This document shows positions 19,423 to 23,899 of a DNA stretch of 64,000 nt, piece by piece (the first letter of the stretch is position 1; each line of letters begins with the position of its first letter). The position numbers and the translations under genes are program-made. The notes below the pieces were generated by a model. It did no database searches and was not told where the DNA came from. It saw only the letters and a list, made by a program, of their open reading frames with translations. The DNA lies in assembly GCF_058153355.1 (NCBI RefSeq), contig NZ_CM177019.1; one strand, 5' to 3'.

Positions 19423-19592
19423 TTTGTCCCCCTTAATTATGCAATGAGTATTTGATCATGTATAAGCAATGAAAAACAGCTTTAGGTAATAAGGAACACC
19501 TCAATTATTGAACATAAAATGCGAATTATTTAGTACAAAAAAAGCAGCATTAAGTGAGTAGGCCACCGGAACCTCCCCGACAGCCTCTCGCA

Positions 19593-19626
19593 GAACCGTA
19601 CGTGAAACTCTCGCTTCATACGGCTC
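19593..19626 (-). ncRNA. Group II intron domain V (catalytic hairpin)
   Basis: Minus-strand sequence GAGCCGTATGAAGCGAGAGTTTCACGTACGGTTC matches the domain V pattern GAGCCGTAT...ACGTACGGTTC. Confidence 0.65.
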
Positions 19627-19683
19627 CCGTCAGGCAAACGCGCTTCCTGGTCCTGCTTTCCAGTGGGCAAACAACTCCGGCTT

Positions 19684-20952
19684 CTATTTTGACAGCCTTT
19701 CCATTAGCTGACACGCCTTCGTCTTTCTATACCGCAGGGTTTTATATTTCTTTCTCGCCCACGCAATCAGCGTCAGATTAATATATCTGCATACTTTCTT
19801 CATCGCTGATTTGTGGTATCTCGCGTAATAATTCAGCCACCCCGATATTATCGGATTCAGCCACTTCGCAATATCTTCGAGACTCATCTCCACCCTGCGT
19901 CTGATCCACTGTTTCCTGAGTTTTCCAATCATGCCTTTCTGCGCACGGTTACTCGCCGCCGGGCTGAAACTCGTAAAGAGGTTTCCCCGCCGGTGGTTAC
20001 GTGCTCTTCGCGCTCTGAACGTATACCCCAGAAAATCAAACTGCACTGTTTCATGGTTCGCCTGTCGTTCGCTGTCTTTGCAGTAAACTATTTTCGTTTT
20101 CTCCGGATGTAATTCCAGTCCACATTCCTGAAAACGTTTTGCCAGCTTATTCAGTAATTCCTCTGCCTGTTGTTTACTGCCACAATGAATTAATCCATCA
20201 TCTGCATAACGGCACCAGGGAATTTCCGGATAATGTAACGTCAGCCATTTATCAAACACATAGTGCAGAAATAAATTCGCCAGTACCGGGCTGATGACTC
20301 CACCCTGTGGCGTACCTTTATTTCTTTCCTTCAGTGTTCCATCCGGCATCTGCACCGGCGCTGTCAGCCACCGGCGAATAGACAGTCTTACCCATTTATC
20401 CGCACAATGTTTATCTACTGCCCTGAGTAATAAATCGTGGGAGATATTATCGAATAACCCTTTAATATCAAACTCAAGACACCAGTCGTATTGCCAGCAA
20501 CGTTTTCTGGTGACTGCTATTGCATCCAGCGCTGATTTTCCATGCCGGTATCCGTATGAATCATTCAGGAAATAACGCTCCACTAATGGTTCAAACGTTA
20601 CCAGCACCGTCATCTGCGCTATTCGATCGCTTACTGTCGGTATTCCTAAAAGTCTTTTGCTGCCATCCTTCTTCGGAATTTCCACCGCACGCACTGGCGG
20701 CGGCATCCAGCTTCCCGACGATAACCTGTTCCAGATTTTGTACAGATTTCCTTTCAGATCCCGCTCAAAATCTTTCAGCGTCTGGTTATCCACTCCGGCA
20801 GCTCCGGCATTCGCCTTTATCCGCCGGTACGCTTCCACCACATGCAATTTACTGACCTGAAACGGTTTTGTCTGTTCACACACAGCCTCCTCCTGCCTAC
20901 AGTTGGGCTGTGATGCAGACTGCCCGACGCTGTCCCTTCGCTCCACGTTCAT
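19684..20952 (-). CDS. Group II intron reverse transcriptase/maturase (no HNH endonuclease domain evident)
   Basis: RT motifs (AGAAGVD, GTPQGGVISP, YADDGL) and maturase X region; start set at MNVERRD (20952) because the track start at 21105 lies inside the IS21. Confidence 0.8.
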   Translation of the reverse strand: MNVERRDSVGQSASQPNCRQEEAVCEQTKPFQVSKLHVVEAYRRIKANAGAAGVDNQTLKDFERDLKGNLYKIWNRLSSGSWMPPPVRAVEIPKKDGSKRLLGIPTVSDRIAQMTVLVTFEPLVERYFLNDSYGYRHGKSALDAIAVTRKRCWQYDWCLEFDIKGLFDNISHDLLLRAVDKHCADKWVRLSIRRWLTAPVQMPDGTLKERNKGTPQGGVISPVLANLFLHYVFDKWLTLHYPEIPWCRYADDGLIHCGSKQQAEELLNKLAKRFQECGLELHPEKTKIVYCKDSERQANHETVQFDFLGYTFRARRARNHRRGNLFTSFSPAASNRAQKGMIGKLRKQWIRRRVEMSLEDIAKWLNPIISGWLNYYARYHKSAMKKVCRYINLTLIAWARKKYKTLRYRKTKACQLMERLSK

Positions 20953-21153
20953 TACAAACGCTTCCTCACTACTACGAACAGCTCTGCCCCGGTTTCGCAC
21001 ATCGATACTCTCATACTCATAATTTCGGTTATTTGTATTTCTCTCTTGACATTGCGACGACCGGTTCCCGTAGTTCCTGCAAAGAGCCTGATATGTCAAC
21101 GCCACGATTTTTAACCGTTATTTGCCATTTTCATGCCCGCTAAGATACTTTCG

Positions 21154-21954
21154 TTACTGATGCTGTCCGCTTTTCACCATTTCATCATCACTGATTGGCG
21201 TTGTGTTTTTGGTCAGCACTCCAGCTTTACGTTTCTCTTTTAACCGGTAACTCTCTCCTTTGATATTCAGCGTGGTTGAGTGATGTAGCAGCCGATCCAG
21301 TATCGCTGTTGCCAGCACGTGATCTCCGAACATTTCTCCCCAGTCTGCGAACCCTTTGTTTGACGTCAGTATGATGCTCGCTTTTTCATATCGACGGTTC
21401 AGTAGCCGGAAGAACAGGCTGGCTTCCTCTCTGTTCATCGGCAGATAGCCTATTTCATCCAGGATCAACACCCGGGCATAACTCAGTTGCTGTAGCTGAC
21501 GCTCCAGCCGGTTTTCCTGTTTCGCTTTCATCAGTGTCGCGATCAGTCTGTCCAGTGGCATAAACAGTACCCGATGTCCCGCATCCACCGCTTTCACGCC
21601 AAGAGCTATGGCCAGATGCGTTTTTCCTACACCCGGAGGTCCCAGCAGGATCACGTTTTCGCTGCGCTCCACGAACGCCAGACCTGCCAGTTCCCGGACA
21701 ACCTTACGGTCGATGCCCGGCTGGAAGGTAAAGTCGAACTGCTCCAGCGTTTTGACCCACGGCAGACGAGCCTGCTTCAGCCTGGACTCCATACCGCGCT
21801 GATGCCTGCCGTTCCATTCCTGCTGTAGCGCCATGCTCAGGAACTCCCGGTAGTTCAGCTCTTTTTTAGCTGCCTGTTCCAGCAGGCTTTCAACGTGATA
21901 ACTCAGATGCTCCATTTTCAGGCGACTCAGCAGGACTTCCAGCTCATGCATCAC
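21154..21954 (-). CDS. istB: IS21 helper ATPase IstB
   Basis: 266 aa, Walker [10 protein letters not shown], IstB/DnaC-like. Confidence 0.9.
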
Positions 21955-23123
21955 AACAGCTCCTCATAGGCACTCAGTGGTCGATGTTCCACCTGACTGA
22001 CCTGCTGCCAGAGCGGGGCGTGATGCTCCGGCACTGTCTGCCAGCCAGACGATGCCGAACAGAGGCGATGTGAGGCCACCAGTTTCTCATTACTGTAGAT
22101 CCGCAACTCGTCATCCAGCGATATTCGTATCGATACCGGCTGACCACACAGCGCTTCGGGAACGCTGTAACGATTACCACCAACCTCGATATAGCTGTCC
22201 CAGGACACATGGCGGATGTCGAAGTAACTGGTATCGAAGTCCGTATCCGGTAACGGCTGCAGATGTTCCTGCTCCAGCGCGAAGCGCTGTTCCGGCGTTT
22301 CTTTGAACTGGCGAAGTTCCCGTTTGTCAGCCACATCGGCTATCCATTGCTCCAGTTGTTGATTAACATGAGTGAAGCTGTCGAACCTGCGGTACCGGAC
22401 GAAGAAGTTCTCCTTGAGGTATTTCACCATCCGCTCAACCTTACCTTTTGTTCTGGCCCTGCGTGGACGGCATGCCCGTGGCAGGAAGTTATAGTGGTCG
22501 GCCAGCAACAGGAATCCGGAGTTGAACACGGCTTTCCCGTTGTTATTCTTCAGCACCGCAGCCTTCTGGTTATCAACCAGCACCGTTTTCACACAACCAC
22601 CGAAGTAGCGGAAGGCGCGAACCAGTGATTCGTAGGTATGCTCAGCATCCTGTTTTGGTGCGGCGAAGACATGGAAGCGGCGGGAGAACCCCAGCGTATT
22701 AACCGCAAAGTTAACTTTGCACCGTTGCCCGGCAACCTCCACCTCAACTTCGCCCCAGTCGTGCTGGAGCTGGTATCCAGGCTGAGTTTCGAAGCGAACT
22801 GTTCTTTTTGACGGACGCATTTTACGTTTGGGCTGGATGTAGTAACGCAGCATGGAACGTCCGCCCGTATAGCCCATTGCCTTAATCTCCGCGAAGATAA
22901 CCTCGCTATTCCAGACATTCTCTGCCAGGCGCATGTCGATGTAATCCATAAACGGTTTCAGCTTAACCATTTTGTGGCGGGTCTTTCTGGCTGGCGGTTC
23001 AGGGTATTTGAGGTAGCGTCTGACCGTTCGTTCAGAGCAACCAATCTGAGCCGCAATATCGACAATGTACGCGCCCTGCTGGCGCATTTGCTTTATCATG
23101 TAAAAGTCCTCTCTGCTCAGCAT
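21951..23123 (-). CDS. istA: IS21 transposase IstA
   Basis: 390 aa, N-terminal HTH and DDE integrase core; 4-nt overlap with istB. Confidence 0.9.
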
Positions 23124-23563
23124 GTTGATGTCCTTTCTGGTGTGGGAACCTTAAGGAAACAACATGTTGGGTGGAGCGGACAATCCAAATGGCGAATTAC
23201 CGTCTTATATCACTGGCGCTGACAGATACAGCGTCATGCCTGCTATACACCGGACACCATTCACGCAGCATTCGGAATTCACCCGTAAATTAATCCCGGC
23301 GGTATCACGAAACCTCCGGTTTTGATGTCACTTAGGACTAACGACGTTTCAACACAGGTTCGGGTTTACTCATCTCACTGTATCTCACATAGGATCAGAT
23401 CTCGTCTGATCGTTCCCCCTGCGCTCACTACCATGGCTCTTTACCACAGCAGCCGGGGTTGTTTGGGACCGACTTCCGACAGCAGATCCCGGTGGGCCTG
23501 CCACCATCTCTTCACAAGCTTATGCTTATTACATGCAAAACGTCCCGTTTTGCATCTTTGTGC

Positions 23564-23899
23564 CTACGGCACACCGTGATCTTTCCCTGGACTCGATTTC
23601 GGTTTTGAAGGCGCTTCTATGCCCATAATATCCGGCGCTGAGATAAAAAAGCTATGGCACTGCACACAATGTACAACATGCTGGCTATAACTGTTTTTAA
23701 ACCTGTAGCCCTGATAACCAAATTCATTTGCCGGGCGCTCACAGCATGAACATTTTTCCTGAACTATTTCTGGTTCAGTCATATAAGGAGCAACAACATG
23801 AGTCAGTGATTTATATACCAGCTCAACAGGATGAGTTGTTATATCGACTTCGGAAATATTCATATTATTAATTCTCCAGACATTTTTAATTATAATCAA
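23564..23899 (-). CDS. Hypothetical Cys-rich protein; reading frame runs into the proposed intron 5' end
   Basis: 111 aa with CSCCERP...HCVQCH cysteine/histidine cluster; stop codon falls 10 nt inside the proposed intron. Confidence 0.3.
   Translation of the reverse strand: MIIIKNVWRINNMNISEVDITTHPVELVYKSLTHVVAPYMTEPEIVQEKCSCCERPANEFGYQGYRFKNSYSQHVVHCVQCHSFFISAPDIMGIEAPSKPKSSPGKDHGVP

Follow-up and report, generated by a model that had tools for sequence, protein, structure and literature searches.

An IS21 element nested in a group II intron within an H-rpt element of Escherichia coli

A 64,000-nucleotide (nt) stretch of an E. coli chromosome (contig NZ_CM177019.1 of assembly GCF_058153355.1; hereafter the window) carries on its minus strand a group II intron interrupted by a complete IS21. 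The arrangement is very probably a nested stack at the yafV edge of a type VI secretion system (T6SS-1) island, with IS21 inside a bacterial class D intron that itself lies inside H-rpt, an insertion sequence (IS) of the ISAs1 family. The order of events, H-rpt, then intron, then IS21, is shown because the orthologous yafV-adjacent loci of two other strains hold the uninterrupted intron with a single copy of the 4-bp target GATA. The intron copy is now likely dead both as a ribozyme and as a retroelement. An earlier note, made from the sequence alone, had described a group II intron split by an IS21 with an intact GATA duplication and proposed that the intron came first; these proposals are borne out below, and the point at which IS21 breaks the ribozyme is revised. 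The parts of the stack are as follows.

19553-23574, minus strand: whole composite (intron, nested IS21 and the extra duplication copy), 4,022 nt
21094-23224, minus strand, same orientation as the intron: IS21, 2,131 bp, 99.2% nucleotide identity to two annotated copies (L085 and L086)
23225-23228, plus-strand GATA: target-site duplication copy 1, UAUC on the intron strand (intron nt 347-350)
21090-21093, plus-strand GATA: target-site duplication copy 2; empty sites have a single GATA
21951-23123, minus strand: istA, IS21 transposase, 390 aa, intact; NF033546 at 284 bits (cutoff 160)
21154-21951, minus strand: istB, IS21 helper ATPase, 265-266 aa, intact; NF038214 at 303 bits (cutoff 200)
23575-23589, minus strand: left end of H-rpt, 15 nt, forming the 5' exon with intron-binding site 1 (IBS1); homology to H-rpt loci begins at 23589
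18660-19552, minus strand: rest of H-rpt, forming the 3' exon; its transposase gene, from 19423, is frameshifted

Boundaries and identity of the nested elements

The boundaries of IS21 were fixed by comparison with annotated copies from two other E. coli genomes, each of which is 2,131 bp long and has terminal 14-mers identical to those of the window copy. The termini, TGTCAACGCCA and TGTCAGCGCCA, are of the TGTCA type and match as inverted repeats at 10 of 11 positions; the RefSeq label, 'IS21-like element IS21 family', agrees. Both encoded proteins are full length, IstA differing from WP_000952373.1 at 2 residues and IstB from annotated IstB proteins at 1-2. Because length and termini equal those of the annotated copies and IstA and IstB are complete, the two GATA copies border the true ends of the element. 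A 4-bp target duplication is normal for IS21, and another copy, which splits papF, is flanked on both sides by its own duplication, GTGA.

The intron without IS21 is 1,887 nt long and runs on the minus strand from 23574 to 19553. These ends are fixed by H-rpt copies that have no intron (L002 and L003) and by the end of the Rfam alignment: the intron-less copies read CAGGGAAAAATCACG followed directly by TAATGCTG (junction ATCACG/TAATGC), and the window reads CAGGGAAAGATCACG, then GTGTGCC...CCTACTCACT, then TAATGCTG. The 5' end is GUGUG, of the GUGYG form, at 23574, where the earlier note had placed it; the 3' end, ...CCUACUCACU, lies at 19553, 2 nt beyond the 19555 proposed there. Group II introns usually end in the dinucleotide AY, and this one ends in CU. 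An AY-compliant end at ...CUCAC was considered and rejected, given the junction of the intron-less H-rpt copies and the extra C that 6 of 8 inspected relatives keep past CUCAC. The terminal ...CUCAC(C/U) is conserved in relatives with unrelated 3' exons, those six ending in ...CUCACC, and the CU-type ending seems typical of this intron group. In a Salinivibrio socompensis contig (L005), a related intron ends in ...CUACUCACC and directly abuts the 5' end of another (GUGUGCCGUGG), an arrangement that could be tandem copies, a repeat assembly or an intron-circle-like junction.

Several hallmarks identify the element as a group II intron. The Rfam domain I model RF01999 scores 93.1 bits at 23505-23388, above its gathering score, and RF00029 recovers domain V (19593-19626) and domain VI with its bulged UA in an alignment that ends at 19553. 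The reverse transcriptase matches TIGR04416 at 428 bits (cutoff 300) over a 422-aa part of a 473-aa open reading frame (ORF) at 19684-21105 on the minus strand, and is of the endonuclease-less (En-less) kind. Exon-binding site 1 (EBS1), CGUGAU at 23304-23309 (intron nt 266-271), lies in the loop of helix 256-261/274-279 and is complementary at 6 of 6 positions to the 5'-exon AUCACG (IBS1, 23575-23580). No convincing candidate for EBS2 or EBS3 was identified in the window intron.

Comparison with catalogued E. coli introns, which the earlier note had suggested, points to a known type. The window intron differs at 4 of 1,887 positions (99.8% identity) from the copy annotated as ltrA in strain MFDS1022581. 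Identity to the ATCC 8739 copy, which aligns in a single piece including both flanks and occupies the same position in H-rpt, is 95.8%; copies about 99% identical to the window intron form a separate subgroup in other genomes. The sole full-length intron of ATCC 8739 is E.c.I9 and UMN026 has E.c.I2, both of class D, located in Rhs regions and targeting the Rhs IS (Leclercq and Cordaux, PMC3522654). The E.c.I2 of UMN026 lies at NC_011751 269264-271154. At the level of type, the window copy appears to be an E.c.I9/E.c.I2-like class D intron. A literature search on H-rpt together with a group II intron returned nothing.

Order of insertions and distribution

To reconstruct the empty site, we removed IS21 and one GATA copy from the sequence and used what was left as the query against 5,426 complete E. 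coli genomes. In MFDS1022581 (L001), window positions 23589 to 23225 align with L001 3001-3365 and positions 21093 to 16401 with L001 3362-8054; exactly 4 bp are common to both alignments, so that the flanks rejoin without a gained or lost base. WL297 (L084) likewise holds an uninterrupted intron at the equivalent position on the chromosome, where yafV, H-rpt and ltrA follow one another, and its two alignments also share 4 bp, the tetranucleotide at L084 38541-38544; this strain is 99.0% identical to the window over the core segment 54000-60000. The uninterrupted orthologous copies in these two strains establish the sequence of events that the earlier note had proposed.

The full-length intron was found in 83 of the 5,426 genomes (one place covering at least 80% of the IS-free query), beside an ISAs1-family (H-rpt) transposase gene. 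By the same measure the composite of intron and IS21 was found in none of them, and a scan of metagenome contigs with a 32-nt junction pattern gave 0 matches. Other copies of this intron have been broken by different elements: IS2 splits the H-rpt-site copy in MFDS1019527, and IS1 splits the same intron in at least six genomes (AH04, CX12, CX08, AH02, CT01 and GmM062). Since IS1 and IS2 have independently broken other copies, IS hits in E. coli copies of this intron are commonplace.

The history we favour has three steps. An H-rpt element of the ISAs1 family was present first; a class D intron then retrohomed to a site 15 bp inside the left end of that element, guided by the CGUGAU-AUCACG pairing of EBS1 with the exon; and IS21 later transposed between intron nt 350 and 351, in this lineage only, duplicating its 4-bp target. 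Of the three elements, IS21 would be the sole one still potentially mobile, judging from its intact genes and ends.

Two other accounts of the junctions were weighed. That they are an assembly artefact, from a repeat-collapsed or chimeric contig, might be suspected because many E. coli genomes have several copies of IS21 (the composite query finds up to 20 matching places per genome) and because the junction is not shared by any further public complete genome or by a metagenome contig. Yet a perfect 4-bp duplication stands exactly at both true IS ends, and the flanks rejoin into an uninterrupted intron with no base extra or missing; these two features argue for real transposition over misjoining, and we regard an artefact as having almost no chance of being correct. 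It is somewhat less far-fetched, if still unlikely, that recombination brought in the entire H-rpt/intron/IS21 block from another lineage, in which the IS21 insertion had already taken place. The adjacent VgrG cargo at 23575-27500 matches no complete E. coli genome, indicating a mosaic neighbourhood, and Escherichia group II introns mostly travel on mobile elements (PMC3522654). The downstream flank, however, is collinear with MFDS1022581 and WL297 through yafV, and an import would alter only the place of the event, not the structure or the order of insertions.

The break in domain I and the fate of the intron

To locate the insertion within the ribozyme, we collected a set of 80 related introns (reverse transcriptases 50-68% identical) and aligned the 5' half of the ribozyme from 33 members of the set (alignment A1). 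The RNAalifold consensus of the 33 introns contains 149 pairs, 99 of them with compensatory changes. By explicit count 97.5% of cells are paired, versus 38-42% after the partners are shifted by 1-3 columns, and 0 of 500 shuffled controls reached the observed values. Domains I-III can thus be recovered once IS21 is removed, a check that the earlier note had proposed. A single-sequence minimum-free-energy fold of intron nt 1-500 was discarded because it conflicts with this comparative structure, and a manual candidate for helix I(ii), CAAAG/CUUUG, was replaced by the covariation-supported nt 57-67/354-364. The parts of the intron are as follows.

23229-23574, minus strand: intron nt 1-346, with GUGUG at the 5' end, the first strands of helices I(i) and I(ii), subdomains IA-IC and almost the whole of ID
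Intron nt 6-11/367-372: helix I(i), 6 pairs, 3 compensatory, 100% paired
Intron nt 57-67/354-364: helix I(ii), 11 pairs, 7 compensatory, 98.3% paired
Intron nt 191-204/337-350: basal helix of subdomain ID, from the consensus structure
21068-21089, minus strand: last 22 nt of domain I (nt 351-372), comprising the joiner AGG, the I(ii) 3' strand (21076-21086) and the I(i) 3' strand (21068-21073)
20986-21067, minus strand: domain II (nt 373-454); helices 15-20 make up domains II and III
20926-20985, minus strand: domain III (nt 455-514)
From about intron nt 529: domain IV
19684-20883, minus strand: reverse transcriptase/maturase ORF (domain IV), probable GUG start at 20883, premature TAG at 19684-19686
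19553-19628, minus strand: domains V and VI, with the 3' splice site; RF00029 at 62.8 bits (gathering score 40)

In this structure the IS21 break is inside domain I, 22 nt short of its end. The earlier note had placed IS21 between domains I-III and domains IV-VI; the consensus instead puts domains II and III downstream, together with IV-VI, and helices 15-20, which make up II and III, are 97.7-100% paired with many compensatory changes. The 3' strand of the ID basal helix ends with the four bases of the duplicated UAUC, and IS21 lies 3 nt from the I(ii) 3' strand and 16 nt from the I(i) 3' strand, adjoining the nucleotides G352, G353, C354 and U355 that are invariant in the 33-intron alignment. 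The upstream piece thus retains the exon-binding sites and most of domain I, and the downstream piece the I(ii) and I(i) closing strands and domains II-VI.

The reverse transcriptase bears a second lesion, absent from the earlier note. At intron nt 1754 the window has U where MFDS1022581 has G, which changes codon 423 (RefSeq numbering) from GAG to TAG and removes the last 18 residues, EKPELFAHWKAGPGSAFA. The lost tail includes the motif P-LFAHW-G--FA, conserved to the last residue in relatives; residue 431 or a later one is reached by 76 of 80 tblastn matches in relatives, and residue 440 by 39. Because the nonsense codon deletes this conserved C-terminus, the maturase is probably impaired independently of IS21. 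At the other end of the gene, the RefSeq ATG of ltrA (L001 3503, equivalent to window 20952 and intron nt 488) falls within the domain III hairpin, in its conserved GUAAUG loop. In all 33 relatives a conserved GGAGGA followed by a start codon lies about 70 nt beyond the annotated ATG, and in the window the GUG at 20883 stands 5 nt past the conserved GGAGG. The true start of ltrA is probably this GUG, which would make the annotated protein about 23 residues too long.

Loss of splicing and retrohoming is likely because a conserved junction of domain I holds an insert of 2.1 kb, the maturase is truncated and the host H-rpt gene is frameshifted. The competing account is that the interrupted intron still splices, either with IS21 tolerated as a giant loop in the domain I junction or from two transcripts joined in trans, as in organellar split introns. 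Several observations weigh against the loss of function. Both helices flanking the insertion can form on paper: the duplicated UAUC leaves the ID basal helix whole on the upstream piece, and the 3' strands of I(ii) and I(i) are intact downstream. A break in domain I need not be fatal, since Ll.LtrB introns cut within that domain remain capable of trans-splicing in vivo with their maturase, raising conjugation to about 240,000-fold above background (PMC1874635). A scan of IS21 for intrinsic terminators on the intron strand predicted none, which makes read-through transcription conceivable. On the reading as a whole, the insertion is 'recent' in a relative sense only, as IS21 differs from the copies of other genomes at 16-18 of 2,131 positions and the window holds no second IS21 of the same genome for comparison; the intron, for its part, may by name be either E.c.I9 or E.c.I2. 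Against continued splicing stand the invariant nucleotides that the insertion abuts, and the maturase, which in the window is without its conserved C-terminus and on which Ll.LtrB trans-splicing is absolutely dependent according to the same paper (PMC1874635). The host H-rpt gene is moreover a pseudogene, so no selection would maintain splicing. Taken together, we consider it very improbable that the intron still splices. We give even less credence to the specific proposal that the split intron is still processed, by tolerating the 2.1-kb insert or by reassembling two RNAs; if true, it would be a natural bacterial intermediate between a contiguous and a fragmented, trans-splicing group II intron.

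A hybrid promoter formed by IS21 and the intron was also considered: the IS end carries an outward TTGACA, but inspection and a consensus scan gave no acceptable -10 box 16-18 nt downstream, and the candidate was dropped.

Genomic setting and comparison with known systems

The H-rpt host is itself decayed. Its transposase in the window meets an early stop on direct reading, and the MFDS1022581 orthologue is annotated 'ISAs1 family transposase, frameshifted; internal stop'. In that strain the left end of H-rpt occurs twice upstream of the intron (L001 2950-3016), as CAGGGAAAGGTCAAGTAAT and then CAGGGAAAGATCATC, and the final two 5'-exon bases are TC versus CG in the window, giving weaker EBS1-IBS1 pairing. 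The region 17129-19552 holds decayed H-rpt/ISAs1 followed by ORFs at 17928-18431 and 17349-17861, the latter with a PFL_4695 integrative-conjugative-element domain, then another ISAs1 fragment and yafV; WL297 is without a segment of roughly 1.9 kb of this region.

On the other side of the stack lies vgrG (28682-30718), and downstream of it, at 24047-28660 on the minus strand, are five ORFs of low GC content encoding 433, 341, 216, 339 and 200 aa. An NCBIfam search of the five gave no match, and megablast of 23575-27500 gave no meaningful match in the 5,426 complete E. coli genomes; a Peptidase_M23 domain was weakly matched in the 433-aa protein (E = 2.7e-6), and the 339-aa protein matched no Pfam family. 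These ORFs may be an unusual set of T6SS effector and immunity cargo. Elsewhere in the window, Rfam naRNA4 hits, to elements derived from repetitive extragenic palindromes (REP), lie at 1792-1868 and 12287-12364 with 76-81 bits, the first also on the opposite strand.

The nested-transposon event is ordinary and already known in kind, since both elements are well known, the copies are at least 99% identical to annotated ones, and the same intron is split elsewhere by IS1 and IS2; the only new item is this insertion allele. The locus is nevertheless a clean, datable stack of three mobile elements (H-rpt, class D intron and IS21), and it illustrates the inactivation and decay of enterobacterial group II intron copies, in keeping with the extinction dynamics that Leclercq and Cordaux described (PMC3522654). 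As it is in no other complete E. coli genome, the junction could act as a lineage marker. Its practical value lies mainly in annotation, and the knowledge of introns and of IS21 is unchanged.

Set beside E.c.I9 and E.c.I2, which home into the Rhs-associated H-rpt (ISEc1, ISAs1 family), the window intron has the homing site of the ATCC 8739 copy, 15 nt inside the H-rpt end, the same domains V and VI and the same En-less reverse transcriptase, and differs in having IS21 in domain I and a nonsense codon that costs the reverse transcriptase 18 residues. The IS21 agrees with known copies in length, termini, nucleotide identity, full-length IstA and IstB and 4-bp duplication, and only its insertion site is distinct, the junction occurring in 0 of the 5,426 complete genomes and in no metagenome contig. 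With other IS-disrupted E. coli copies the locus has in common the intron and the H-rpt site, whereas the IS and its position differ: IS1 cuts the reverse transcriptase ORF, and the IS21 of the window cuts ribozyme domain I. Fragmented introns such as Chlamydomonas psaA intron 1 and the engineered Ll.LtrB also have a ribozyme discontinuous within domain I (PMC1874635). The window intron, by contrast, has its parts on one DNA strand around an IS, and its break lies near the 3' end of domain I, whereas that of the psaA and Ll.LtrB type lies upstream of EBS1 and EBS2.

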